DNA of 64,000 bases. It comes from an uncultured archaeon (GTDB lineage Archaea > Thermoplasmatota > Penumbrarchaeia > JASLWR01). This document shows, one piece after another, positions 1-13,738 of the stretch; positions within the stretch are counted from its first letter, which is position 1, and the number at the start of each line of letters is the position of its first letter. The stretch lies in NCBI GenBank assembly GCA_964430885.1, contig CAYSHM010000009.1, positions 1-64,000 of the forward strand. Reading direction: 5' to 3'. The notes beneath the pieces were generated by a model. That model was not told the origin of the DNA, did not search any database, and saw only the letters and a program-made list of their open reading frames with translations. A program made the position numbers and the translations under genes.

Positions 1-1739
1 TCATCCAATAGGGGTGCACGGATAGAGAATTCACCATCACTGAAGAGAAAATAATATGTGTGATTACCTAAGCCAAGTGAAGTTGAATAAGTATATGTAA
101 CACCCTTATCGAAATCATCCTCACTTGTATTTAGTTCAAATCCTACTCCATCAATAAACACCTGGGCAATTTCAGGTATGTCGTTTTCTCCATCTGAATA
201 TTCTATACTGTAAGTGAATATTGTATCTCTATTCCCTTCATAGGGATTAAGGTTGGGATTATCCAATGAAGGGGCATGATTTGCCAATATAACATTAGGA
301 CCGTATATATATCCTACAGCAGGGCATCTTACCTCGCTCATTCCATCGCTGAATGAAAAAAAGTAAGTATGGTTACCCGGAGGTAAAAGCGTCTTATAAG
401 TGTAGACTGACCCATCATCATATGTTGAATCCGATGAAGACATCAGATATCCAGTTCCATCAATGAATACCTTTCCATTAATGGCCGGATCGTTTTCCAG
501 ATCAGTGTAGGTGATATTAAAATTGAAATCCGTCTCAGAGTTCCCCTCTTCAGGCCAATGGGTCGGCGTAGATAGAATTGGAATAGAATTTACTTGAGGC
601 CCACTCCAATTTCCAGATGTTGGCATTCTGATAAGTTTTCCTCCTACAGCAAAAATAAAATAATACTCATGCATACCTGCAGTCAAGTTAGTTGAAAATG
701 AATAGGTCACACCTGATTTCCAACCTGAGGTGGATTCGGTTTCCATATCAAAGGCTATCCCATCTATTACGACCTCATGGCGTGTTGGAGATACATCTTC
801 CCTATAACTGTATTCCAAAGTATAGTTGAAAAGTGTTTCTGTATCGCCGGACATCGGTTCGAGATTCCCGTCTGTGAGTTCAGGCATTATTATTGGACGG
901 ATGTATTGATGAGTATGGTTGTGATTTACATTAGAATGCCCACCAGGATAGTCGGTCCAAATCTCTGCGTTAGTAGCCCCAAATATATGATGCTTATACA
1001 TTAGATGTGGGCCATAAGTCCCGTGAGCGGCATTAAAATCTGCAACCAAATTCAGAAGCATAGCATCCAAACCGTAAAATTTAGGATCATTCTGCATAAA
1101 TGAATTGCAGGAGCTATGGGTACCGCATGTGTTGTGAAACCATCTAACACCATTTGGCATTTCCACTAGATAAGTATCTACCTGTCCACCTGTACTTTCA
1201 TGGGCTGCTCCAAAGGCGGTAACAGTTACACCTAAAACTGAAATCGACCTGTTTTGCCCCATTGTTGGATTTAGCCGATGGACCTTGCTTGCATTCAATC
1301 CCCTAGATATCATATCGTTATAAACAGGGCTGTTCCCAATAACATGAGCGCCTGTGTTGTTTGCGACCAAGTAAGTGGTATCAGCGTCATAATGTGTCAT
1401 ATGACCATGGGATTCAGTAATTATTATATCTGCCTTATTTACTGTTGCAGGATCCCAATTGCATCCGGCGGCAGGAAATGCTTCAATGAAAATGTCAAGT
1501 GTTCCATCGTCTACTCGAAAGGCTGTTGAACCAGCAAATCCTCCAGTTCCGTCTGCCTGGAGAAAAGTAAAATTCAAATCAGGTTGTTCATCAGTTCTTA
1601 GTCTGTTGTTCTTGACTTCAAACTCTCTATAGCAATTTATGTGATTTCCGTTTTCCCCACAGTAAAATATTGGAATTGAAGAAAATGATAATATCAATAT
1701 AACTACAATACTCAAAACTCTTCTCAAAAATATCACCAT
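1..1739 (-). CDS. Secreted protein: metallo-beta-lactamase-like domain plus at least 3 tandem ~95-aa Ig-like repeats (runs off the window start)
   Basis: Not in the ORF track because its stop lies outside the window. Hand translation from ATG 1739 is open to position 3: signal peptide MVIFLRRVLSIVVILILSFSS, motif ESHGHMTH, then repeats P..G...T.F....Y.D.END.....V.IDG....M...G..Y...L..G.H.Y.F.FSDG. Confidence 0.85.
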   Translation of the reverse strand, partial: MVIFLRRVLSIVVILILSFSSIPIFYCGENGNHINCYREFEVKNNRLRTDEQPDLNFTFLQADGTGGFAGSTAFRVDDGTLDIFIEAFPAAGCNWDPATVNKADIIITESHGHMTHYDADTTYLVANNTGAHVIGNSPVYNDMISRGLNASKVHRLNPTMGQNRSISVLGVTVTAFGAAHESTGGQVDTYLVEMPNGVRWFHNTCGTHSSCNSFMQNDPKFYGLDAMLLNLVADFNAAHGTYGPHLMYKHHIFGATNAEIWTDYPGGHSNVNHNHTHQYIRPIIMPELTDGNLEPMSGDTETLFNYTLEYSYREDVSPTRHEVVIDGIAFDMETESTSGWKSGVTYSFSTNLTAGMHEYYFIFAVGGKLIRMPTSGNWSGPQVNSIPILSTPTHWPEEGNSETDFNFNITYTDLENDPAINGKVFIDGTGYLMSSSDSTYDDGSVYTYKTLLPPGNHTYFFSFSDGMSEVRCPAVGYIYGPNVILANHAPSLDNPNLNPYEGNRDTIFTYSIEYSDGENDIPEIAQVFIDGVGFELNTSEDDFDKGVTYTYSTSLGLGNHTYYFLFSDGEFSIRAPLLD

Positions 1740-2012
1740 TTTACTATTACAGTGTTATTAGTGTAAAAATATTAGCCTTTGATTCCTGCCTCTATTTATT
1801 AATACTATTATAGTAACTGGTCGAATTAGGGGCAATCAAATTTATTATGGTTGGAGTCGTATCGCTGGCTATTTAAAACTCTACTATCTGATATAGCGGC
1901 GTTAATAAGAAGCCATGATTAGGTTATTTCACTTCAAAATATGCTCCAAAAGGAATATAGACCTAAAGGACAAATTTTTTAATAAAATCTCCATAGGGAG
2001 ATTATTGATAAC

Positions 2013-2590
2013 ATGGATGCAAGAAAACATCTTAATACCACAGCATCATTTCTCATATTGTTCACTTTGGCAGTGGCGTTAATCCCTGTAGAATTCATTC
2101 AGCAGAATAAGTTAGATGTTGAAGATAAAAGAGAATTGATAACTGAATGAGACAAAACCAGGTCAACTACTATTTGGTAGGTTAATTCCACTCAATATAT
2201 TGAGGAAACCTTCACGGTTGGAATAGATGAGACCCTCATCATAGAACCGGCGGTACATTGGTTGCAGGAACCGTGGACGCTTCCAATGTGGATAAGAGAG
2301 AATTGGATTATTGGATCTATTATAAGCTGGATGACGGTGATTGGACCCAGGTGTCAGGTATACATGATTGGCGGCTTGTAGTTGATGCTGGAGAACTGAA
2401 AGCAGGAGTGCCCACACTCTTGATCCGCATGGAGGATGGATTGACAGACCTTGAGACCTCAATTTACCTGATTGTAGTTGATGAAAGAGGTAACGAAGAT
2501 AATGAAAGTCCAGGATTTGGATTGATAATATTATCTCTATCAATTTTTATACGTATGTTGGTTTTCCTAAACAAAAGGAAGACCGCCTGA
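2013..2590 (+). pseudogene. Degraded PGF-CTERM-type surface protein gene
   Basis: ATG 2013 gives a signal-like N-terminus, then in-frame TGA (2148-2150) and TAG, then ETLIIEP. A different frame (2258-2590) ends in SPGFGLIILSLSIFIRMLVFLNKRK (PGF + TM + basic tail). Confidence 0.55.
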
Positions 2591-3574
2591 TCAGATCAGG
2601 TTAGGGAAATAAGGATAGAGAAAGAGGAATGCCGCTCCGATTACAGCAATGAATGCTCCTATGATGCCTCTTCTATTCACTTTTTCCTTGTATAGTAACC
2701 ATACATATGGGATTATAAAGATGGGCATCAAGGCCATAAGGGTCGAAGCAATACCTGCAGCGATTTTTGTAATAGCTACCATTGAGAGCCAAACACCAAT
2801 AAAGGGGCCCGTAAAGGCACCAGCGGCAACTCTTTTTATTGACTTGGAATCCTTAATAGCTTTAATCACGCCAGACATTTTTCCGGTAAATATTACTACA
2901 AAAAGTATGAATGCACAAGCGATCAACATTCTAATATATGTTGCAGAGAGTGAATCAAGACAGTCCTCTCCTCCTCCGGCGAATAATCCGTATTTTGCAA
3001 CAACATATCCCAATCCCTGCCCAAGGGCCCCCCCCATACCTAGCATTATACCAAAGAATTTCTTTCTCGGGGTCAATTTATTTGTTTTTTTTTCACTCTC
3101 TGTTTCCTGTTCAAGTACTACTATGAATACTCCCGTAAGTGTCAATGCAATTCCTAAAAGGACCCATATTCCTAAATACTCATCGAGTATGATGAATCCG
3201 AAAATAGTTGAGAATATGGGTGCTGTGGACATCATGAGGACCCCTTTTCTGGGTCCTAAAATCACCAAAGTTCCGAAATATCCGAAATCCCCTAGTGCCA
3301 ATCCGATGATCCCGCTGAGGCCTAAATATTTCCAGTGAACGAACTCCTTTGAAGGTATTATGGTCTGGTAGATTACTAGATGAGCTGCGGTCAAGAAGAA
3401 AACTGCGATGACAATTCTGATGGTGTTCACATTCAGAGCACCGATACGTTTTCCCGCCGAGGCAAAAAGAACGGAGCAGGTCGTCCAAAGCACTGCTGTT
3501 ATTACCGCAGCCCCAGCACCGATGATGTTGGAGTCCATTGAATTCATTGGATTACAAGACTGGTAGCATATCAA
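2591..3574 (-). CDS. DMT/EamA family transporter
   Basis: About 10 hydrophobic helices in two EamA-like halves (LSGIIGLALGD...LG; GPFIGVWLSM...GIASTL...P). Confidence 0.9.
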   Translation of the reverse strand: MICYQSCNPMNSMDSNIIGAGAAVITAVLWTTCSVLFASAGKRIGALNVNTIRIVIAVFFLTAAHLVIYQTIIPSKEFVHWKYLGLSGIIGLALGDFGYFGTLVILGPRKGVLMMSTAPIFSTIFGFIILDEYLGIWVLLGIALTLTGVFIVVLEQETESEKKTNKLTPRKKFFGIMLGMGGALGQGLGYVVAKYGLFAGGGEDCLDSLSATYIRMLIACAFILFVVIFTGKMSGVIKAIKDSKSIKRVAAGAFTGPFIGVWLSMVAITKIAAGIASTLMALMPIFIIPYVWLLYKEKVNRRGIIGAFIAVIGAAFLFLYPYFPNLI

Positions 3575-3692
3575 TTTTGTTGAACTTTTTTCACCTGGGG
3601 TGTATTAATGTTCTTATTATTTGTTTTACTCAGCCGCCAATAATTATATAGTTACTGCTGAATAGGTAGTTGGGCTCTGAGAGGGTGAAAAA

Positions 3693-4553
3693 TTGATTGA
3701 TGATGATGATTTTTTTATAGAAACTTCTATTAGAAGAAATGATGGAAGAAAAAGAGATGAAATCAGACCCATAACGATTGTTCCAGGTAAGGTAAGACAG
3801 GTGAGGGGTTCAGCATACATTGAATGGGGAAACAACAAAATAATTGCTACTGTAACCGGACCTCAAAGAATTCATGATTATAGGTCCCGGAACAATTCAA
3901 GAGCCATAGTGGTATGTAAAATGAAAATGGCCCCTTTTGCCTTTGAAATGGATGCACTGAAAAACGGTGGGTCTAGCTCCATTTCAGAATCAAAGGAGAA
4001 CATAGCTATCATAGCCAATACCATGTCTGACACCTTCTCTGATGTTATATTGACGGAAAAATATCCCCGAACCTCCATTGATATTGCTATTGAAGTACTG
4101 CAGGCAGGAGCCGGATTGATGTCTGCTTCAATTACCGCATCCAGTGTTGCTCTGATCGATGCTGGAATACCGGTGAAGGATCTTGTATCTGCTTGTACAT
4201 TAGGTACAAAGGACGGGAAAATCCTTATTGACATAGGTCCTGAGGAATTGAAAAGTGTTGATTCATTGGTTAATTTAGGATTAATGCCAAGGACCTGTGA
4301 GTATGTTTTCATGGATGGGGCCGGTAAGATAAACCAAGATATTATCTTGGATATTCTGGATTGGGGAACAAGAGCATGTGAATCTGTGGCGCGGATTCAG
4401 AGGAGATCGTTTATTGATGGAGGTCCCATCAACGAGACGATGGAGTTTAATAATGGAACAGACGCCGATCTCTCGGAAACGATGATGATCCAAAGAACTC
4501 TCAGTGACAAAGAAGAACTGCTGAAGGATATTGATGACCTTATGGAGGAATGA
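3693..4553 (+). CDS. rrp41: Divergent exosome subunit Rrp41-like RNase PH-fold protein, active site degenerate
   Basis: RxDGRKRDEIRPI, GSAYIEWGNNKIIATVTGP, YPRTSIDI.IEVLQA, ALIDAGIP.KDLV; catalytic motifs replaced (see findings). Confidence 0.85.
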   Translation: MIDDDDFFIETSIRRNDGRKRDEIRPITIVPGKVRQVRGSAYIEWGNNKIIATVTGPQRIHDYRSRNNSRAIVVCKMKMAPFAFEMDALKNGGSSSISESKENIAIIANTMSDTFSDVILTEKYPRTSIDIAIEVLQAGAGLMSASITASSVALIDAGIPVKDLVSACTLGTKDGKILIDIGPEELKSVDSLVNLGLMPRTCEYVFMDGAGKINQDIILDILDWGTRACESVARIQRRSFIDGGPINETMEFNNGTDADLSETMMIQRTLSDKEELLKDIDDLMEE

Positions 4554-5329
4554 CCATGGAGGATATTTTAATTGATTTGAATAGGGAGTTCTATAAAGAT
4601 CTTGCCCACAAAGGGTTGAGGATGGACGGCCGGTCAACGGACCAACACAGGGAGATATGGTTGAGAACCGGAGTAATAACGACCGCCAATGGATCAGCAA
4701 GATTGAGGTTGGGTGAGACCGACGTTCTGACCTGCATAAGATACAATAGGGAAAAAATCCTCGATAAAAAAAATAACGATATATCTGTAGCAGTAACCAT
4801 CCGATTTCAATCAGGTATTTCAAATAATAAGGATTGGCCTTTCAATCAAGCTCATCTGAATGATTTGGCTTATTCCCTAAAAGGTGTCTTGTCGAATTCG
4901 GGATTCATGGATATCTCTGGGCTTCAAGGGCCAGCTGTTGATGAGATGTTGGTCTTCAATGTGGATATAATTATCTTGGATCATAATGGTAATATCCCAG
5001 ATGCTGTGGGATTAAGCGCATTGGCCGCTTTGGGAAATGCCAGTTTAACTGAAGATGATGGGGTCTTCGGCTATACTAAGAATAAAATCAATTTGATGGG
5101 TATGCCCATTCCCTTCAGCTTTGCCAAAATAGGTGACCTTATGATTTTGGACCCGGATATGAAGGAAGAGCTCACTGCAGGTGGGATCGTCACATTCTGG
5201 CTGGACCCTGGTAGAATGATGCATGCTGTTAATAAGTTCGGAAAAGGCCGGTATTCCCGGGATTTTTTTTTAAATGCTTTAAATATAGCTGCTGATAAAA
5301 TTCCGGAAATATATGCATTATTCCCCTGA
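4550..5329 (+). CDS. rrp42: Divergent exosome subunit Rrp42-like RNase PH-fold protein
   Basis: GLRMDGR, ANGSARLRLGET, ILDHNGNIPDA...ALAAL, LDP...EE; ATGA overlap with the rrp41-like gene. Confidence 0.85.
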   Translation: MTMEDILIDLNREFYKDLAHKGLRMDGRSTDQHREIWLRTGVITTANGSARLRLGETDVLTCIRYNREKILDKKNNDISVAVTIRFQSGISNNKDWPFNQAHLNDLAYSLKGVLSNSGFMDISGLQGPAVDEMLVFNVDIIILDHNGNIPDAVGLSALAALGNASLTEDDGVFGYTKNKINLMGMPIPFSFAKIGDLMILDPDMKEELTAGGIVTFWLDPGRMMHAVNKFGKGRYSRDFFLNALNIAADKIPEIYALFP

Positions 5330-5355
5330 CCTGCCGCAATCCGAGAACATTCCTC

Positions 5356-6048
5356 TCATCTAGGGCTGCTTTCTTCAATTTTTTTGGCAATGCCGTTTTC
5401 AATAGTGGACCTATGCAAATGGATGAATGCCAAAGCAGAAAGCAGTGTCGAAAGGCCGAATCCAAAGGAGAATATACCTGCAAAACACATTGCCTTTGCC
5501 TCCTTTAACTTATCCCTTTTCAAACCTATGATCCCCAGTATCTGAAATGTTGTTGATATGGTAAATATAAAAATGAATATCCCGCAGAGATCTGGCAGAT
5601 TATCTGCATTGAAACTGCCGTGATTAGTTTCTCCAATCCCCTTTTCCATACCTAGAAGTATGTCGTATGATCTATCATCGTGGTTCAGAAGATTTCTGGT
5701 TGTTGTGTGATAGGTCAGGTTCTTCATCCCGTCGGCCCTTACCGTAATAACCGTATTGCCGGGGTCGATATCCTCAAGAAAGACCTTTCCATCCTTGTCA
5801 GTATAACCGGAATATTGCCAATTATCTATTTCGATTACTACCTCGGCTCCTTCAACAGGACCACCTTCGGAGGTAACGGTGCATTGAATATCCACAGGAT
5901 TGCCAATTTTATCCACATTGCTGAGAAAAATAATTCCTGTGAAAAGGAACATAAATGAAAACATCACCGATCCAACCATGAACCTTCGGGCTCTTTCCCT
6001 TTCCCTCCTAGCCCTATTTCTGAGGTTTTTAGGATCCGGCAGATGCAT
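5356..6048 (-). CDS. Membrane protein with carboxypeptidase-regulatory-like beta-sandwich domain
   Basis: N-terminal TM, PVEGAEV...TDKDG motif, two C-terminal TMs. Confidence 0.7.
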   Translation of the reverse strand: MHLPDPKNLRNRARRERERARRFMVGSVMFSFMFLFTGIIFLSNVDKIGNPVDIQCTVTSEGGPVEGAEVVIEIDNWQYSGYTDKDGKVFLEDIDPGNTVITVRADGMKNLTYHTTTRNLLNHDDRSYDILLGMEKGIGETNHGSFNADNLPDLCGIFIFIFTISTTFQILGIIGLKRDKLKEAKAMCFAGIFSFGFGLSTLLSALAFIHLHRSTIENGIAKKIEESSPR

Positions 6049-6083
6049 GATTTAATCCCTTCAAAATTGATTTACCTCTATCT

Positions 6084-6725
6084 TTACAGAAGGAGCAGTT
6101 CCCCGATATCATTCAGGAAATGGTCAGGATTAGCTCTCTCGTAATTATGGAAATGAGGTCTGACCAACTGAGCAGTATGGGTTCCCGCTCTTTTACCGGC
6201 TATCACATCCAGTTCACTGTCCCCTATCATTATTGCCCTATCTGGTGAAACATTCATTTGATTCAGTACTTCTATAATTCCGTGGGGTTCCGGTTTTGAT
6301 GTTGCTTCCTTGTACCGGGTTGCATATATTTTATTGAAATGATCCAACAGTCCGACATACTCCAATTCGTCCCTAGCCACACTTTCAGGGGTATTGCTTA
6401 CAAGTGCTATCTCACCGGGGAGCTCCTTAATTTTTACCGCATCAGGATATGCCCGCAATGTCCCGTCAATGAACAGTTCTTTCCTCACCAGACGATCTTC
6501 CACCTCCAATCTCTTCCAATAGTCCAAAGGCTCCTTGATGCCCAAACTCTTCAAGTATTCATTTGATTTCTCAAAGGGCAATTTCAGGGAGGTATAGAGG
6601 TCGTCGTCCGGAGGCAGGAAAACTCCGAACTCTTCATAGACCTTCCTCTGGATGCTGCGGAACCACGCGATATCCTTTATATCTATCAATGTGCCATCTA
6701 GGTCAAAAATATAGGCATCGAACAT
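6084..6725 (-). CDS. HAD-superfamily hydrolase (phosphoglycolate phosphatase-like)
   Basis: FDLDGTL, VSN, KPEP, IGDSELDV motifs I-IV. Confidence 0.92.
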   Translation of the reverse strand: MFDAYIFDLDGTLIDIKDIAWFRSIQRKVYEEFGVFLPPDDDLYTSLKLPFEKSNEYLKSLGIKEPLDYWKRLEVEDRLVRKELFIDGTLRAYPDAVKIKELPGEIALVSNTPESVARDELEYVGLLDHFNKIYATRYKEATSKPEPHGIIEVLNQMNVSPDRAIMIGDSELDVIAGKRAGTHTAQLVRPHFHNYERANPDHFLNDIGELLLL

Positions 6726-6827
6726 AGTTCTGGAAAAGGATAAGCAGATATTTTAATCTTGTTCCATGATATTTTCAAGTGATGTAAACAGTCTTTTTAC
6801 TCTGTGAAGCCATCACTGATCGGGAAT

Positions 6828-7703
6828 CTATGCCGGATATACAATATGATTTGACCTTGATGATGTGAGGTGATTGATATCAAAATAAATTTTTCCATCT
6901 TCACCTAGACTCTCTTCGATCAAGGCAGTTACAAGCTCCCGATTATCCCTGCGAGTGAAAATACTGTCCAAAAAGGGACCGGTATTGCCGAAAATATAGG
7001 CAGTTCCGTCACCTTTCTTGACCTTGTAAGCCAGGGCGACCGGTCCGTGCAGATCCTTTCCTATCCCATCCATGACTCCGTTATCATTGAGATCAACAAA
7101 GGATTTGCTGGCAATATAAGGACGATCCCCCGGAGGTCGTACAACCCATATGGGTGATGTTGCCAGTATTCTGTGGGTTTCCAATTGGGAATCCTCAGTC
7201 ATGTTCAAAGCCAAGGGCTGGTTGAACATTATGTTCATCTCTTCAGTGAAGTAATTGGTAGTAGATATTATAAATGATGTGTTGAAATCGTATTCGCTGT
7301 CCTGTACCATATGGTCATAATAAAATATACCAAACCTGGATGCCAGCTCCCCTGCGGAAGCAGCATTGTCAGATGCCAAAACTAGTGTTCCTCCCTTCTC
7401 TACGTATTCAACCAGGGCCAAACGTTCGTTGACAGTGGGTGCGGTATCCAAACCTATCTTGAATATCATGGTATTACCAATATCCGGTAAGGAAGATGAA
7501 TGGGATGTGTTTGACAGATACTTAAAATCCTGCGGAGTATCCTCGTCCAGGAATTTCTGACACTTGGAAAGGTCCTTCCAGCCATTGATCGTATCTGGAT
7601 TTTTCCCTTTTTCAGTACACCCCATGGTGAATACCATTGAGAAAATAATAATTAGAAGCATAACTATCTCTAAAGGGGTTCTGAAGGACGGCATCTGAAT
7701 CAA
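6828..7703 (-). CDS. Probable lipoprotein, DUF4350/GATase-like fold
   Basis: Signal peptide ending TMGC; LVEYVEKGGTLVLASD and G.G..YIFG....F....DN patterns. Confidence 0.6.
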   Translation of the reverse strand: MIQMPSFRTPLEIVMLLIIIFSMVFTMGCTEKGKNPDTINGWKDLSKCQKFLDEDTPQDFKYLSNTSHSSSLPDIGNTMIFKIGLDTAPTVNERLALVEYVEKGGTLVLASDNAASAGELASRFGIFYYDHMVQDSEYDFNTSFIISTTNYFTEEMNIMFNQPLALNMTEDSQLETHRILATSPIWVVRPPGDRPYIASKSFVDLNDNGVMDGIGKDLHGPVALAYKVKKGDGTAYIFGNTGPFLDSIFTRRDNRELVTALIEESLGEDGKIYFDINHLTSSRSNHIVYPA

Positions 7704-7990
7704 TCCAAAATTTTATAAACGCAGTTTGAAAAACCAATAAGACATCACTAAGATATGTATAATAATATGTATCTCTCAGAATATATAATTTGTAGTCAGG
7801 TAAATCCAAAGGGATAATTTGACTTAGATACGTTGATTTTTTTTTAGGGGTGGAATAATCCTAACAGCAATGATTATCGTGCAAAGCTCAATTGCCACCA
7901 AAGGAAATATATACTTACTTTGAAATGACTGGTTTTGCCTGATTATTATTTTCTCGATGCTGGATGAAGTAAATAAATAGGGAGTTCATT

Positions 7991-8542
7991 ATGGATACAA
8001 AGATCTACATCACACCGGATGAACTATTGGATCAATCTTTTGCTCTGGCCAATATGATTTGGGATGATGGATTTTATCCTGATTTCCTGGTTGGCCTATG
8101 GCGCGGAGGAACACCTCCGGGAATCGCTATTCAGGAGTTCTTTGCTTACAAGGGAATGAATGTATATCATACGGCAATAAAGACCCAGTCGTACACTGGA
8201 ATAATGTCCTCGGGGCCAGTTTCCATCAAGGGAATTGACCATGTTATAGAAACAATCAATAGTGAGGATAATCTGCTCCTTGTGGATGATGTTTTTGATT
8301 CAGGAAAAACAATGGAAGCCGTAGTTGATACTATCAAAAGCAAGGCCCGAAAGAATGCTCCGACTATCCGTATAGCGGTAGTTTATTACAAACCCAAGCA
8401 CAACGAATCCAACCTGGTACCTGATTATTATGTGGTGGAGAATAACTCATGGCTGATTTTCCCCCACGAACTCCAGGGCCTCACGAAGGAAGAAATATAT
8501 CTGAAGGAACCTGATGTGGCTAAATACCTTTTTGAAGATTAG
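7991..8542 (+). CDS. Purine phosphoribosyltransferase (HPRT/XGPRT-like)
   Basis: LWRGG, PRPP motif LLLVDDVFDSGKT, PDYY...WLIFPHE. Confidence 0.9.
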   Translation: MDTKIYITPDELLDQSFALANMIWDDGFYPDFLVGLWRGGTPPGIAIQEFFAYKGMNVYHTAIKTQSYTGIMSSGPVSIKGIDHVIETINSEDNLLLVDDVFDSGKTMEAVVDTIKSKARKNAPTIRIAVVYYKPKHNESNLVPDYYVVENNSWLIFPHELQGLTKEEIYLKEPDVAKYLFED

Positions 8543-8569
8543 TGGTCCAACACAAATAGTTGGAAAGGG

Positions 8570-9460
8570 TTAGAGAAGTTCGTCCATTAATGACATTGTG
8601 TGATATTCCTTCTGCTCTTTACCGCATTTCACCGCTATCAATTCTGCCAATATGGCAACTGCGATCTCTCCTGGTGTCTGGGCTCCGATATCCAATCCGA
8701 TGGGGGAATGGATCTTGTTAAGTTTTTCCTCATTAGCCCCCAGTGAAAGGCATTTTTCAATATTCTTCCTCACCTTTATCCGGGATCCGATCATTCCCAC
8801 ATATCGAATGTTATCCCAGTTTTTTTCCAGGATTGTCTGCAGTACCTCCAGATCGTGAATGTGCTGATGGGTAACTATTATGAAATAGGCCGCCGAATTG
8901 AGTTCAAGAGATCGAATGGATTCGACATAGTTGCCGAGCAGCACCTCCGCTTCAGGGAATAGCTCGGCCTGTGCGAACTCGGCACGGTTGTCTAATATTA
9001 CAATATCCAGGTCCAATTCCCCCAGAATCCTGTAGAGCGATCTCGCGATATGCCCCGCTCCCGCTATGAAAATCCTGCCCCTGGGATAATGGCATTGAAT
9101 AAATACGCTCATATCTCCCCCGCATATCATACCGGTGTCTTCATGGGTTTCAGATTTGATTTCATTGTCATCATCCGACCCTATAGGTGCTCCATCAATA
9201 ACACTACCAAGGGAATACTCCAGAAGAGCGGATTCTTCCCGGTAATTAAGCATATCCCTGGACTTTGTAATGACCTGTTTTTCTATGCTTCCACCGCCTA
9301 TTGAACCGTGTATATTGCCGTTTATCTCTATGATCATGGTACTGCCGGTCTTCCGGGGCGTGGAATCTGATGTTTTGACCACTGTAGCATGGGCAAATGC
9401 AGTGCCCTTTTCCCTCAATCGGTTCATTTCTTTTACCAGGTGCATCCTTACCACTTTCAA
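8570..9460 (-). CDS. xdhC: XdhC/CoxI family molybdoenzyme maturation factor
   Basis: STPR..G..M, GSIGGGSIE, ICGG, GAGHIA, VTHQH..D, YVGMIGS, PIGLDIGA.TP.EIA. Confidence 0.9.
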   Translation of the reverse strand: MKVVRMHLVKEMNRLREKGTAFAHATVVKTSDSTPRKTGSTMIIEINGNIHGSIGGGSIEKQVITKSRDMLNYREESALLEYSLGSVIDGAPIGSDDDNEIKSETHEDTGMICGGDMSVFIQCHYPRGRIFIAGAGHIARSLYRILGELDLDIVILDNRAEFAQAELFPEAEVLLGNYVESIRSLELNSAAYFIIVTHQHIHDLEVLQTILEKNWDNIRYVGMIGSRIKVRKNIEKCLSLGANEEKLNKIHSPIGLDIGAQTPGEIAVAILAELIAVKCGKEQKEYHTMSLMDELL

Positions 9461-9492
9461 TATTATTCTGCTGATTAATTACTGCCTTTCAA

Positions 9493-9551
9493 GTGCTCAG
9501 TTCGCCCGTCTGTCATCATTATTCAGTTTTTTGTAATTTTCATCATTGCAC
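9493..9551 (-). ncRNA. Box C/D methylation guide sRNA
   Basis: Minus strand reads GTGC-A-ATGATGA(C)-AAATTACAAAAAA-CTGA(D')-ATA-ATGATGA(C')-CAGACGGGCGAA-CTGA(D)-GCAC: four consensus boxes, 13- and 12-nt spacers, terminal stem. Confidence 0.9.
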
Positions 9552-9723
9552 CATAAAAGATAGTCTATTTTATCTTAATAACAGGCATAATCCTATCACG
9601 TATAAATGTCGTTTCGAAAAATGTGTGCTCCTGAAGAATTTGGTGATAAGGACATCTTCATTTTTTAACTGCCTCCATTCCATTAGTGTTCTCAAGCTCC
9701 AAAAGTCAATAGATTTTTAGTCC

Positions 9724-11835
9724 TCAGACAAGAAGCATGTTGGCAATAATAATTGAAAGTGAAAAAGTGAAAAGCGTTATAGGCAGGGCTTTAACAAAGG
9801 TGACCTTGAGCTCCACTCGGTCATTTCCATATTTGATATTGGTACAGAAATAGAGTATTACCAGAACAGTGAGGATTAGATAGATGCCTATTATCAGACA
9901 GAATATCTCAGGGGCTATTACTGCAGCCCCCTCACCGAATCCCTGCCCGAAATTGAACGGCCCGATATCGGGAACATCTGCGGAAGAGTTGCCCATTCCT
10001 CCGATGCTGCCTATTCCTGACAGGCTTTCGGACAGCATCTGATATAGTGCGGTGGTGATGCCCATTATTATAGGTCCGAATATGGATCCGGTTGTCATCA
10101 TCATTCCTCTTACCGAGGACAGATTGTTGTCGATCTCATCCTCCACATTCTTCATCTGTCTAAGATATTGAGATATCTTGATTATGGTCGCTCCAGCTAC
10201 AGCGGGATCCTTTTTGATGGAATCCACCACTGTCCTCATGGATGCCTTGATGGTTCTTGAAGGATGGTTCTTTAATAGACCCTGGCTTCCGAAAAGGGCA
10301 TGTTTCAGCTGACTCCTTACAACCTGAAGGTTATAGAATATCTGTTTCAGAAGCCCACTGATGAAGGTATCCTCCATGCTTCGAGCTGTGCTGGATAGGG
10401 AATCTTCGAAAGCCTTTCCTTCGGCAATCCTGCTTCCGAGATGATAGAGTGCATCGGGAAATTCCTTTTCCATTTGGATTATCCTGTCCCTCTTCTTCTT
10501 CTGGTGACGGGAAGTAGAATGTGAATAGTAAATTATTGCAAGGCCGAAACCTATGATTATGGGCAGTGGACTTATTGATCTGAGCAGCGGGTCAGTGCTG
10601 TCATCTACGGATACCATACCTAGTATTCCCAATACGAGTCCGGTGAGAAATATTAGCACTGATACCGTTATGATTGCCTTCTTTTTAGCGGTTGAAAGTG
10701 GATTTGGGATATCGGGCGGTGTGGAGGTTCCCGGTCTATTGCCCAGGATGTGGTAAGCATACATGAGTGTTGTTCCAGGGAAAACCACATCCATTACAAG
10801 TACGATGGTGGGGACTGAATTGCTGCCTACCTGAAGAAGTGGCAGCATGGCTCCTATGATCATGGGAAGAAGTATACCCAGAGAGAAGAGGACCATTGTC
10901 GGGGCGGTCAGTGAATTGGCAAATCCCAGCATCTGCCTTCTAGTACCCTCAAGAATTATATCATTAGCGGTATCAAGAGCTCTCTCAATTCCTTCCTTTG
11001 TCTTCTCAATGGCTGAATTCCTGACACTGTAAAGTGCTCTTTTAAATTCCTCGTTGAATCTGCCACAGAAGCTGGCAAAGTCCAAAAACGAGCGCTCAAT
11101 GCTGTCGAATTCTCTGATATATACATTCCAGAGGATCTTTTTAAGCTGGGTCGCCAGGGGTTCATCCACATTGTCAGAAGCAAATTCGACTGCGGTGTTA
11201 AGGGATGGGTTCAAAGCCATTGACATTGACATGTAATTAATAACCTCAGGTAGTCTGCCTAGGGTTTTGACCTGAAGCCTATGTGCCTTTCTGTACGGGT
11301 ATCGCGAAACAAGTGCAGATAATATCGGAGGAAGGAGAAGGGTTATTCCTCCTATCAGAACGATCATAAATAGGCTAGGAACATCACCTAGCATAATGAA
11401 TATCACAATAATAATAGCATCCATGACCGCCAGAGCTAGATATGAAAATATGAGTATGAATGTGGCAAATACACTCACTTGGAAGGGTTCGAGGTCGTAG
11501 CGGAGGTATTTAAGGCAGAAGTTTAATTCGTGGTTCTGGTATTCCAGTTTTGTCTTGGCGAACATTTCCCTTTCGAGATTATATTCATTCTCATGGTCCC
11601 AGTAGCGTTCATTATCCTTCTTGAACCTCTTCTTCATTTCCTTGAAGTTGGACTCGGCCTTTTCATATCTTTTTTTCGCCTTATCGAGTACTGCCTTGCG
11701 CTCCTCCTCGTACTCCATCTTTTTTTTGGCCTTGTCCTCCACCATTATCTTTGTAGCTAGATTACACCCGTCAGTGAACCAGTCCACCTGGTAAAAATCC
11801 CTGCGTCCAGTGAATCTTTCTATACCGCTAGGCAT
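9724..11835 (-). CDS. Type IV pilus/T2SS inner-membrane platform protein (T2SS-F/TadC-like, duplicated domain)
   Basis: Two T2SSF-like units (LPEVINYM...SL..AVEFA; EFPDALYHLG...EG..FE) with TM blocks; overlaps the ATPase gene. Confidence 0.82.
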   Translation of the reverse strand: MPSGIERFTGRRDFYQVDWFTDGCNLATKIMVEDKAKKKMEYEEERKAVLDKAKKRYEKAESNFKEMKKRFKKDNERYWDHENEYNLEREMFAKTKLEYQNHELNFCLKYLRYDLEPFQVSVFATFILIFSYLALAVMDAIIIVIFIMLGDVPSLFMIVLIGGITLLLPPILSALVSRYPYRKAHRLQVKTLGRLPEVINYMSMSMALNPSLNTAVEFASDNVDEPLATQLKKILWNVYIREFDSIERSFLDFASFCGRFNEEFKRALYSVRNSAIEKTKEGIERALDTANDIILEGTRRQMLGFANSLTAPTMVLFSLGILLPMIIGAMLPLLQVGSNSVPTIVLVMDVVFPGTTLMYAYHILGNRPGTSTPPDIPNPLSTAKKKAIITVSVLIFLTGLVLGILGMVSVDDSTDPLLRSISPLPIIIGFGLAIIYYSHSTSRHQKKKRDRIIQMEKEFPDALYHLGSRIAEGKAFEDSLSSTARSMEDTFISGLLKQIFYNLQVVRSQLKHALFGSQGLLKNHPSRTIKASMRTVVDSIKKDPAVAGATIIKISQYLRQMKNVEDEIDNNLSSVRGMMMTTGSIFGPIIMGITTALYQMLSESLSGIGSIGGMGNSSADVPDIGPFNFGQGFGEGAAVIAPEIFCLIIGIYLILTVLVILYFCTNIKYGNDRVELKVTFVKALPITLFTFSLSIIIANMLLV

Positions 11836-13738
11836 GTATCACGCGCCTCTTGTAGATATTGTACCACTCGTCATATAGTGTGTCGTAGTTAATTCTACTG
11901 AATTTACGATAATGCTCCTCCACAACATTCCAGAATATATCGCTGGCTTGTGAGCTGGCATTAACTCCCAAAAGTTTGGGCATATTGAAATGATGGGAAT
12001 CCTTTACTAGGGTCTCCTTTATCATTGCCCTTATCCTGATATTCTCCTCAAGCTCCTCCACAGTTGTCCCCCAATTGTCCGCTATGTTCCTGAGAAGGGC
12101 GGAGTTTGGTCCCAGAGCTTCAGTGGGCATAAGCTTGTCGGTGTTTGGATCGTATGTCATCAGATCAGCAAACATCTGCTCCTCATTGAGGTTCAGGTCC
12201 TTCTTCACTTCGGTGATCTGGGTTACCCTTTTTATGGATTCCTGTATACCGCTGGGCCTTGTCAATCCAGCTACCACCACCACATCCGTTGCGCTGAAGG
12301 ATTCCCTGTTGATTTTCAGGTCATATACTATTCGCTCGTATACACCTCGGGCGGAATTGGCATGGATCGTACCTAGGACAGAACTGCCTGCGGTTCCGGC
12401 CCTCATAGCCTCGTAAAGGGTCTGGGCTTCCTCACCTCTGACCTCACCCATAACTATTGCAGATTCTCCGAGACGTAATGATACCTTCAGAGCATCAGTG
12501 GTGGATGCATCCCCCATTGATCCCAGAGATGACTGAACATACAGGGATTGAACCTTGTAGCCCAGATCCTGCATCTTCAGGACTGGCAATTCCAAGGTAT
12601 CCTCAATGGTCAGAATTCGCTGGCTCTTGGGGAATTCTAGGAGTATCGCACCTAAGAGCGAGGTCTTGCCCGCACCCCTGCTTCCGGTCACCAAAACGGT
12701 ATTCTGGGAGTCTATCAGGAACCAAAGAAGACCGGCGCCTAGAGGCGTTAGGCTTCCTACATCAATGAGCCGTGCTAGGGTCCAGGGGTCCATTGCATGT
12801 TTCCTTAAAGCGAAAGCCGTTCCCTGAGGGCTGATGGGGTTCCCCACAACTGTCACCCTGGTATCATAGGAATCCAGATCGCATTCCAGAACCGGATTTG
12901 CCTCTGAAAAAGGCCTTCCGCTGTCGTATCTGAACCTTGAAAGAAGGCTTTCTACATCATTGGTTGAGAGAATAACATTTGTTCGGCAGTTCCCCGGGAA
13001 GGCCGAACTGCCTATCTTTCCAAGGGTAACATATATTTGATTATCTGGAGCGGGAGCATCAATGTAGACATCGTGAATGTTGGGGTCCTTCAAGATGATC
13101 TCCAGTATACCCATACCTGCGGTATAGCGCGCAAGAATCTTTGCAAGGGACTGTATCTGGCTTGAGGCTCTGCCCTTGTCGAAACTTATATTATGCAGGT
13201 TTGCCAGTTCATATAGGTGATACTCCGCATATTTCTGGACATAATCCTTGGCCTGCTCAATATTTGACAGCTGTATATTAGGCGGTATCTCCTCTGTCAG
13301 GCTCTTTCTAGCGATCTCCAGCAATCTTAGGAACCTGTGGTCAAGATCGTATTCTGGAGGAGAGATGAAGTAATATCCCTCTGTCTCGTTCTTCAATCTA
13401 TGGATGCTCACCTTTGCATCCAGTATCTGATATGATATGACCTCCTGGGCATTGGCTGGGACCTTGGGTACCAGCCAGGAGGATGAAAAATGCGGTTTTA
13501 TACGCCTGTTCATACTGAATATGCGGTATAAGCCGTTCTTCAAGCTATCGGTTTGGGTCTGGTTTTCGAAATTAGCGAACCTCCTCTGAAGTTCCTGCCC
13601 CATTCGAACAACATCCTGACTGGATTTGAGTTCGCCATCTTTATCAGAGCCTTTAAGGACCCATTTTGACGGTTTTTTTTCGGCATTGCTTAAGGTCAAA
13701 GCGTTAGAATTGACGCCTTGATAATTATTATAGGACAT
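11828..13738 (-). CDS. Type II/IV secretion ATPase (VirB11/TadA/FlaI family)
   Basis: Walker A GSRGAGKTS, Asp box TIEDTLEL, Walker B VMGEVRG, His box GTIH; AGGAG upstream. Confidence 0.93.
   Translation of the reverse strand: MSYNNYQGVNSNALTLSNAEKKPSKWVLKGSDKDGELKSSQDVVRMGQELQRRFANFENQTQTDSLKNGLYRIFSMNRRIKPHFSSSWLVPKVPANAQEVISYQILDAKVSIHRLKNETEGYYFISPPEYDLDHRFLRLLEIARKSLTEEIPPNIQLSNIEQAKDYVQKYAEYHLYELANLHNISFDKGRASSQIQSLAKILARYTAGMGILEIILKDPNIHDVYIDAPAPDNQIYVTLGKIGSSAFPGNCRTNVILSTNDVESLLSRFRYDSGRPFSEANPVLECDLDSYDTRVTVVGNPISPQGTAFALRKHAMDPWTLARLIDVGSLTPLGAGLLWFLIDSQNTVLVTGSRGAGKTSLLGAILLEFPKSQRILTIEDTLELPVLKMQDLGYKVQSLYVQSSLGSMGDASTTDALKVSLRLGESAIVMGEVRGEEAQTLYEAMRAGTAGSSVLGTIHANSARGVYERIVYDLKINRESFSATDVVVVAGLTRPSGIQESIKRVTQITEVKKDLNLNEEQMFADLMTYDPNTDKLMPTEALGPNSALLRNIADNWGTTVEELEENIRIRAMIKETLVKDSHHFNMPKLLGVNASSQASDIFWNVVEEHYRKFSRINYDTLYDEWYNIYKRRVIHA

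Follow-up and report, generated by a model that had tools for sequence, protein, structure and literature searches.

Most archaea have a phosphorolytic exosome, and the exceptions described in PMC7144898 are halophiles and some methanogens, which have RNase R. The archaeal exosomes studied so far are reported to be active, processive phosphorylases, and inactivation of the core (Exo9) is regarded as eukaryotic, the loss of activity being placed within eukaryotes in bioRxiv 10.64898/2026.03.16.711897 (see also PMC7144898). According to PMC3539426, the phosphate ligands of Sulfolobus solfataricus Rrp41 are the side chains of R99, S138 and R139, and Mg is held by D182 and D188; the D182A substitution abolishes activity and Mg is required for degradation and tailing alike. 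T137 of Thermoplasma acidophilum Rrp41 is the equivalent of S138 (PMC11201974, section 3.2). Here we describe an rrp41-like and an rrp42-like gene, coupled to each other at positions 3693-5329 of a 64,000-nucleotide stretch of DNA from a marine archaeon (the window; C9:1-64000 of genome G000, a 3.13-Mb assembly in 44 contigs that is 91.6% complete). By every sequence criterion that we tested the pair is predicted to be phosphorolytically dead, and it is the only set of exosome-core genes in the assembly. We favor the possibility, at a probability of about 0.5, that a core of this kind is kept as a platform for the Rrp4/Csl4 cap. The two genes and the sites that bear on their activity are as follows.

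3693-4553, + strand: Rrp41-like gene, 286 amino acids, TTG start, RNase PH fold, active-site residues lost
3954-4001, + strand: glycine/serine-rich loop (residues 88-103), a 6-7 residue insertion at the place of canonical RKRPGPDRRS, Arg pair gone, predicted local distance difference test score (pLDDT) 62-63
4101-4121, + strand: former phosphate loop QAGAGLM (residues 137-143), canonical QADAGTR, with T/S replaced by L142 and R by M143
4242-4268, + strand: EELKSVDSL (residues 184-192), both Mg-coordinating Asp replaced, by L186 and L192
4550-5329, + strand: Rrp42-like gene, 259 amino acids (257 in one source), RNase PH fold, extremely diverged
4862-4894, + strand: helix DLAYSLKGVLS (residues 105-115) of the Rrp42-like protein, with Y108, G112 and S115 where ELARVVDRGIRES has its three conserved Arg

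Residues were read from ungapped phmmer stretches against solved archaeal Rrp41 and Rrp42 and from MAFFT alignments of 12-24 homologues. A preliminary description of this DNA had reported two intact, ATGA-coupled frames of the RNase PH fold, the replacement of the phosphate site, the Asp pair and the Arg pair in the first of them and of three Arg in the second, and the retention of the fold motifs DGR, GSA and DAGIP; all of these observations are borne out. T137 and R138 of T. acidophilum stand opposite L142 and M143 in both the ungapped phmmer and the MAFFT alignments, and the counterpart of R99 is S96 (I97 in an alternative alignment). The Rrp41-like protein thus has none of the five side chains (0/5) that bind phosphate and Mg in S. 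solfataricus. Loss of the Arg pair does not depend on the alignment, since Arg is absent from the whole stretch between residues 71 and 125. The Rrp42-like protein is altered in the conserved ELARVVDRGIRES helix, which faces the active site and whose three Arg we take to be RNA contacts; these changes are also seen in an alignment with Pyrococcus abyssi. Of the columns with 90% identity or more across canonical sequences, the Rrp41-like protein keeps 50 of 91 (canonical rows, 83-91), a count to which a possible two-residue register shift near residues 206-212 (FMDGAG) could restore two or three, and the Rrp42-like protein keeps 33 of 68 (canonical rows, 61-68).

The family to which each protein belongs can nevertheless be read. 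Pfam assigns RNase_PH (PF01138; 95.3 bits, E 5e-27) and RNase_PH_C (PF03725; 21.3 bits) to the Rrp41-like protein and the same two domains (48.9 bits, E 1e-12, and 27.9 bits) to the Rrp42-like protein, all above the gathering score, which places both in the RNase PH-like fold superfamily; with such E values, 286 and 259 open codons in DNA of 41% GC are no chance frames. The NCBIfam Rrp41 model (TIGR02065) gives 172 bits against an equivalog cut-off of 318.7, and the Rrp42 model (NF003282) gives 109.8 bits against a cut-off of 280, so neither protein reaches the equivalog level; the canonical control genome G012 scores 368.3 and 328.3. The models for PNPase and RNase PH score 41-53 bits on the window proteins, whose best families are instead Rrp41 and Rrp42, and the best PDB matches of the Rrp41-like protein are likewise Rrp41. 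AlphaFold2 models have a pLDDT of 83.7 and a predicted template modelling score (pTM) of 0.79 for the Rrp41-like protein and values of 82.5 and 0.85 for its partner. With the Rrp41-like model, the best Foldseek matches are archaeal Rrp41 chains, at target-normalised TM-scores of 0.85-0.92. A predicted complex of both proteins with Rrp4 scored 0.80, and a control in which the Rrp42-like chain was replaced scored 0.74, a difference that we do not count for or against binding. An acidic C-terminal tail is present, and there is no new domain.

Database searches place the pair far from any other sequence. The best non-self match of the Rrp41-like protein among 5.8 billion proteins is a canonical sequence at 42% identity; that of the Rrp42-like protein among 1.84 billion representatives has 30% identity (111.6 bits), and of the nine top matches that we aligned with it, seven have all three Arg and the others have two. 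No relatives closer than the orthologues of G002, a genome of the same family (39% and 29% identity, a saturated distance), were found in the 5.8-billion-protein, 1.84-billion-representative or exact-cluster searches; the second members of the exact clusters apparently differ only in the called start. Source names of the best protein matches are of the kind Thermoplasmata or Thermoplasmatota archaeon. In four DNA runs, all from a single marine study, the sequence matches the window exactly and shows no variant letters; two of these runs are possibly the source of the assembly.

A whole-genome search of G000 with the Rrp41 and Rrp42 family models found no further Rrp41 or Rrp42. Besides the pair, the models matched only a PNPase of 767 amino acids on C1 and an RNase PH of 250 amino acids on C38, whose gene adjoins an open reading frame (ORF) labelled as ribosomal protein S24e-like from its sequence only; a genome-contig scan with the Rrp41-like protein gave no confirmed match. 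The pair does not hold the superoperon position psmA-SBDS-rrp4-rrp41-rrp42, as it lies on C9 and rrp4 on C13. In relatives rrp4 is immediately upstream of rrp41 in 10 of the 12 loci inspected, the exceptions being G002 and G005 (about 370 bp apart). The genes elsewhere in G000 on which the argument leans are listed here.

C13: Rrp4, 236 amino acids, preceded directly by a proteasome subunit-like ORF and an SBDS homologue, and followed directly by a leucyl-tRNA synthetase-like ORF
C11: Csl4, 193 amino acids with a zinc ribbon
C1, L002 520-2823: bacterial-type PNPase, 767 amino acids, KH and S1 domains, 810 bits (cut-off 471)
C1, L068 511-3471, - strand: RNB-domain protein, 986 amino acids, about 15 kb from the PNPase gene

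The SBDS homologue was confirmed by phmmer, the proteasome label comes from sequence and the leucyl-tRNA synthetase label from N-terminal sequence. Because the synthetase-like ORF stands directly after rrp4, the slot in which rrp41-rrp42 would be expected is assembled and empty. These results alter the setting in which the preliminary description had placed the genes. It had called the pair an orphan and had noted that rrp4, csl4, proteasome and ribosomal-protein genes were missing from its surroundings. The pair is indeed outside the superoperon and both cap genes are on other contigs, a proteasome-like ORF standing beside rrp4 (ORFs around the pair were inspected over 1-13738 only), but Rrp4 and Csl4 are present and well conserved, so that the word orphan applies to position only. 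It had also suggested that the pair forms a second hexamer, present alongside a canonical exosome or inhibiting it, and had advised a search for a canonical rrp4-rrp41-rrp42 locus. No such locus was found in the genome, and the pair cannot well be a second ring when the assembly has no other Rrp41/Rrp42 and the position behind rrp4 is empty. The accompanying idea of a scaffold survives as an inference, with the difference that it would now concern the cell's only exosome core and not an extra ring.

The caps contrast with the ring in their state of preservation. Rrp4 and Csl4 of G000 pass their NCBIfam cut-offs (223.3 bits against 200 and 148.8 against 90), and Rrp4 keeps 36 of 41 conserved columns, within the range of canonical rows (35-41). 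The same pattern, caps passing and ring failing the equivalog scores, is common to G000, G002 and a third genome, G007. The only ECR1_N matches in G000 are those on C13 (Rrp4) and C11 (Csl4), with none on C9. A search for EXOSC1 (PF10447) found nothing in five genomes; it is uninformative because the canonical control G012 was among the negatives, and ECR1_N was used instead.

To set the pair in context we compared 37 species genomes of the class and a 401-genome sample of the phylum. Within the class, Rrp41 scores above the cut-off in 10 of 37 genomes (327-382 bits), is full-length and below it in three (G002, 253 bits; G007, 199; G000, 172) and is missing from the other 24, which may stand for perhaps four or more loss events and not 24. 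In the phylum sample 32 genomes have no Rrp41 match at E 1e-35, 24 of them in this class, and the remaining genomes below the Rrp41 cut-off have E values of about 1e-89 to 1e-98. Weak Rrp41 matches in G072, G073 and G089 were considered as further degenerate cores and rejected, two being split into adjacent frames and one cut by a contig end. The split genes (G089:C19:8284-8975 and G072:C56:444-1067) are otherwise canonical Rrp41 in two adjacent frames, which could reflect a frameshift or an assembly error.

Of the 37 class genomes, 32 encode a PNPase, and in the phylum sample 32 of the 33 positives (of 401) belong to this class, leaving 1 of 364 outside it. This is no artefact of binning, since in G012, whose assembly is a single contig, PNPase occurs together with a canonical Rrp41. 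In the PNPase of G000, Asp residues align with 486 and 492 in a chain whose coordinates and score equal those of E. coli entries, and D486 and D492 of the E. coli enzyme are named in PMC3539426. The RNase PH of G000 passes its cut-off as well (326.8 bits against 141.5), and the two replacement enzymes look intact from their sequences. The 986-residue RNB protein is RNase R-like (342.9 bits, below the equivalog cut-off), with an insertion that splits the RNB domain; Pfam finds no match in its first 400 or so residues and no PIN domain. Proteins of this split type also occur in G002, in G005 and in G003, which has no ring. We had entertained an RNB nuclease as a mark of dead cores, as it held in five genomes, in which only the three with dead cores had one, but the association dissolved across the class: 26 of 37 genomes have an RNB-domain protein, comprising all three with a dead core, 4 of the 10 with a canonical one and 19 of the 24 without a ring, so it is not specific to dead cores.

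The caps, by comparison, follow the ring. ECR1_N was found in 12 of the 13 class genomes that have Rrp41 (the thirteenth, G027, has Rrp4 by phmmer) and in 2 of the 24 that do not, which shows that caps are rarely kept in this class without a ring. The two ring-less cases are a 55-residue frame in G003 (G003:C7:57644-57733), possibly a remnant of rrp4 or csl4, and a Csl4-like frame of 206 residues in G008 (G008:C159:4770-4874), a genome with no Rrp41.

Evidence on the history of the pair comes from G002. In a maximum-likelihood Rrp41 tree of 17 rows, G000 and G002 group together (support 88/92, not starred), and in G002 too the operon is cut after rrp4, the rrp41-rrp42 pair stands separately, and the synteny of HAD, ABC ATPase and csl4 genes is the same. 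Its Rrp41 has likewise lost both Asp and the Arg pair. The existence of this orthologous pair, likewise relocated and likewise without both Asp, speaks against a decaying duplicate, an outcome that the preliminary description had allowed for. Where other sequences are conserved, G000 and G002 have only a few derived residues in common (L to I, N to K, S to A, R to S, E to D). G007 (L049 726-2945) has a third degenerate core, from which both Asp and the DGR motif of Rrp41 are gone; its position elsewhere in the tree points to a separate inactivation, and because its pair is still in an intact SBDS-rrp4-rrp41-rrp42 operon, inactivation is possible without relocation.

The ring genes of G000 have evolved about seven times faster than the median, with Rrp41 end branches of 3.42 in G000, 1.46 in G002 and 3.46 in G007 against a median of 0.5. 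A canonical pair of genomes, G012 and G006, stands at an equal SBDS distance to that between G000 and G002, and amino-acid identities in the two comparisons are as follows.

SBDS: 64% between G000 and G002, 65% between G012 and G006
Rrp4: 52% between G000 and G002, 60% between G012 and G006
Rrp41: 39% between G000 and G002, 69% between G012 and G006
Rrp42: 29% between G000 and G002, 61% between G012 and G006

Acceleration is thus confined to the ring, and it is unlike what would be expected of neutral drift. Nonsense mutations make up about 5% of the non-synonymous single-base changes possible in either gene, and in a neutral simulation (300 runs per gene) the frames remained open in 47-50% of runs at 5% amino-acid divergence, in 19-26% at 10%, in 4.7% and 6.3% at 20%, in less than 1% at 30% and in none at 45%. 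The actual divergence from the G002 orthologues is 61% for the Rrp41-like and 71% for the Rrp42-like protein, far past the point at which simulated frames survive. The ring genes cannot have reached it by neutral drift, and neutrality is conceivable only for the latest 5-10% of the divergence. We regard as well supported what the genes are, which residues they have lost, that the pair is the only one in the genome and that its origin is vertical.

A plausible scenario explaining these data is that the pair descends vertically from rrp41-rrp42 and left the psmA-SBDS-rrp4 operon before the genera of G000 and G002 split. Its Rrp41-like subunit would be unable to bind phosphate or the catalytic Mg, and since both would be lost the ring would carry out neither phosphorolytic degradation nor tailing; these tasks would be left to the PNPase, RNase PH and RNase R-like enzymes encoded elsewhere in the genome. 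The ring itself would remain under selection, three Rrp41-like/Rrp42-like dimers forming a platform for the S1/KH caps Rrp4 and Csl4, and the product would be a complex that binds RNA without catalysis, comparable in archaea to the inert Exo9 of eukaryotes. Ring assembly, docking of the caps and any role in RNA handling are what we infer here. We consider a platform the most economical explanation because the caps, which are normally lost together with the ring, are conserved and the frames have been held open.

Several observations weigh against a platform. The ring is gone from genus g2 (G001 and G003) of the same family, f1, and as G003 retains nothing but the 55-residue ECR1_N frame, loss appears to be under way near G000. 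The Csl4-like frame of G008 indicates that a cap can persist alone at least for a while. G000 has the most degenerate core that we have seen: with a canonical query, its Rrp42-like protein reaches 76 bits and the other 14 Rrp42 rows reach 207-347, no database protein exceeds the 42% and 30% identities given above, and the first gene starts with TTG. Four salt bridges are reported between Rrp41 and Rrp42 of T. acidophilum (PMC11201974), and for three of these the aligned residue of one partner or of both is different here (K104 to N109, R110 to Y108, R225 to H225); the position of E101 depends on how the insertion is placed (Glu, E99, by MAFFT; I106 by HMMER), and K245 lies beyond the alignment. 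The Rrp41:Rrp42 dimer interface may therefore be remodelled or weakened. Finally, all the genomes are metagenome assemblies, and related genomes are not independent of each other.

Much of this would be accommodated if the pair were a late-stage relic whose job has been taken over by PNPase, RNase PH and the RNase R-like enzyme, so that it is near-dispensable, has recently been released from selection and is heading for deletion. We regard this as possible, though appreciably less probable than a platform. The 24 ring-less genomes of the class, with sister genus g2 among them, show that deletion does happen; the ring scores of G000 are the weakest of all, its end branch is long, its first gene has a TTG start and its salt-bridge residues have changed, and the last 5-10% of amino-acid divergence is compatible with neutrality. 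Most of the 61-71% divergence is not, however, and the dead state is common to G000 and G002 across a split of 64% SBDS identity, meaning that dead rings have long been kept. In addition, Rrp4 and Csl4, which have disappeared along with the ring in 22 of the 24 genomes that lack one, are at equivalog level here, and the gene overlap and the ribosome-binding-site-like signals of the pair are intact. A ring repurposed for a ligand or partner unrelated to the cap, such as another nucleic acid or a nucleotide, or for the docking of PNPase or of the RNase R-like protein, would account for change that is fast, directional and ring-specific, for the new glycine/serine-rich insertion and acidic tail, and for the derived residues that G000 and G002 have in common. 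We think it unlikely, as there is no new domain, the common derived residues are few and for the most part conservative changes, Pfam detects no PIN domain in the RNase R-like protein, which is of a type also found in ring-less G003, and the neighbouring genes give no hint of such a function.

Two further explanations were considered. One is that the pair is still an active ribonuclease or tailing enzyme that works through other residues: an acidic residue, D190, precedes L192 by two positions, and both E184 and E185 are retained. Canonical sequences have those acidic residues in addition to both Asp, however, and all three phosphate-binding side chains are gone from the Rrp41-like protein; as D182A alone abolishes the activity of the S. 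solfataricus enzyme in the account given in PMC3539426, residual activity is very improbable. The other is the second, inert hexamer mentioned above, coexisting with and modulating a canonical exosome. We found nothing in support of it beyond the formal room that 91.6% completeness leaves for a missing contig, and with no further Rrp41 or Rrp42 in the assembly and a canonical slot that is assembled and empty, in G002 as in G000, it is the least credible of the explanations considered. On balance we continue to favor a dead core kept as a platform for the cap.

The local arrangement of the genes offers some additional detail, as listed here.

2591-3574, - strand: EamA transporter, divergent, upstream of the pair
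3644-3650, + strand: TATA-like element TTATATA, 43-49 nucleotides 5' of the start codon, by consensus likeness only
3681-3688, + strand: Shine-Dalgarno-like GAGGGTGA, 4 nucleotides 5' of the TTG start, predicted from sequence
4544-4549, + strand: Shine-Dalgarno-like element GGAGGA, within the 3' end of the Rrp41-like gene, putatively for the second gene
5356-6048, - strand: membrane protein with a CarboxypepD_reg domain, convergent, downstream of the pair, with a HAD hydrolase next

The ATG of the Rrp42-like gene at 4550 overlaps the TGA (4551-4553) of the Rrp41-like gene to give the ATGA junction, and there is a further in-frame ATG at 4556. The spacing of GGAGGA fits the latter better, and the gene may thus begin at 4556, in keeping with the 257-residue product in one source. 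The flanking transporter and convergent membrane gene are as first described, and neither they nor the other ORFs inspected over 1-13738 give a functional hint for the pair. Other features of this region stand apart from it. An ORF of 579 residues (3-1739, - strand) runs off the start of the window and has a signal-like N-terminus, no Pfam match and, in its C-terminal half, three apparent internal repeats of about 90 residues. A phosphoribosyltransferase (7991-8542, + strand) and an XdhC-family accessory protein (8570-9460, - strand) have no visible link to the exosome pair. At 9724-13738 (- strand), overlapping genes for a T2SSE-family ATPase of 636 residues and a polytopic membrane protein of 703 residues, the latter without a Pfam match, resemble an archaeal type IV pilus or archaellum assembly pair.

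If a dead core is indeed kept in this lineage, it would provide a simple system of two paralogues for asking what use a ring has once RNA cutting is lost, and it would bear on whether exonuclease redundancy permits inactivation of the core. In full-text searches of the literature collection covered, neither an archaeal PNPase nor an archaeal exosome core that is catalytically dead was described in any paper, and a class of archaea in which PNPase is near-universal and the exosome is canonical, dead or absent is new as far as the literature was searched. As the three states occur in one class, the order of events could be tested by comparative genomics together with biochemistry. A bolder proposal is that this lineage of Thermoplasmatota-related archaea independently replayed the eukaryotic step, with an inert Exo9-like hub that would capture RNA through Rrp4/Csl4 and hand it to the bacterial-derived RNase R-like enzyme, to PNPase or to both; on that proposal the cores of G000, G002 and G007, with at least two inactivations among them, would mark a repeatable route open to cells that have a second 3'-5' exonuclease. 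We put this forward as speculation and think it unlikely.

There are four known systems with which the pair can be compared. It has the same coupled two-gene arrangement, fold and encoded caps as the archaeal Rrp41/Rrp42 of S. solfataricus, P. abyssi and T. acidophilum (PDB 2je6, 2pnz and 8xie), but it is without the five active-site side chains and the Rrp42 Arg trio, stands outside the superoperon and reaches only about half of the equivalog cut-off for Rrp41 and less than half of that for Rrp42. The fold family also includes bacterial PNPase and RNase PH; G000 has copies of its own that pass the equivalog cut-offs, and the window genes differ from these. In the exosome-less archaea that use RNase R, as described in PMC7144898, bacterial-type 3'-5' exoribonucleases stand in for the exosome, which may also be the case here, although G000 still encodes ring and caps and its class carries PNPase. 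There is also a likeness to the Exo9 of yeast and human, an inert hub for Rrp44/Dis3 and Rrp6, in that a ring predicted to be dead is combined with S1/KH caps and an enzyme of the RNase II/R family. The archaeal ring differs from Exo9 in having two paralogues and not six, in the presence of PNPase beside it, and in that there is no sign of the RNase R-like protein docking on the ring, this protein having no Pfam PIN domain and occurring equally in ring-less relatives.

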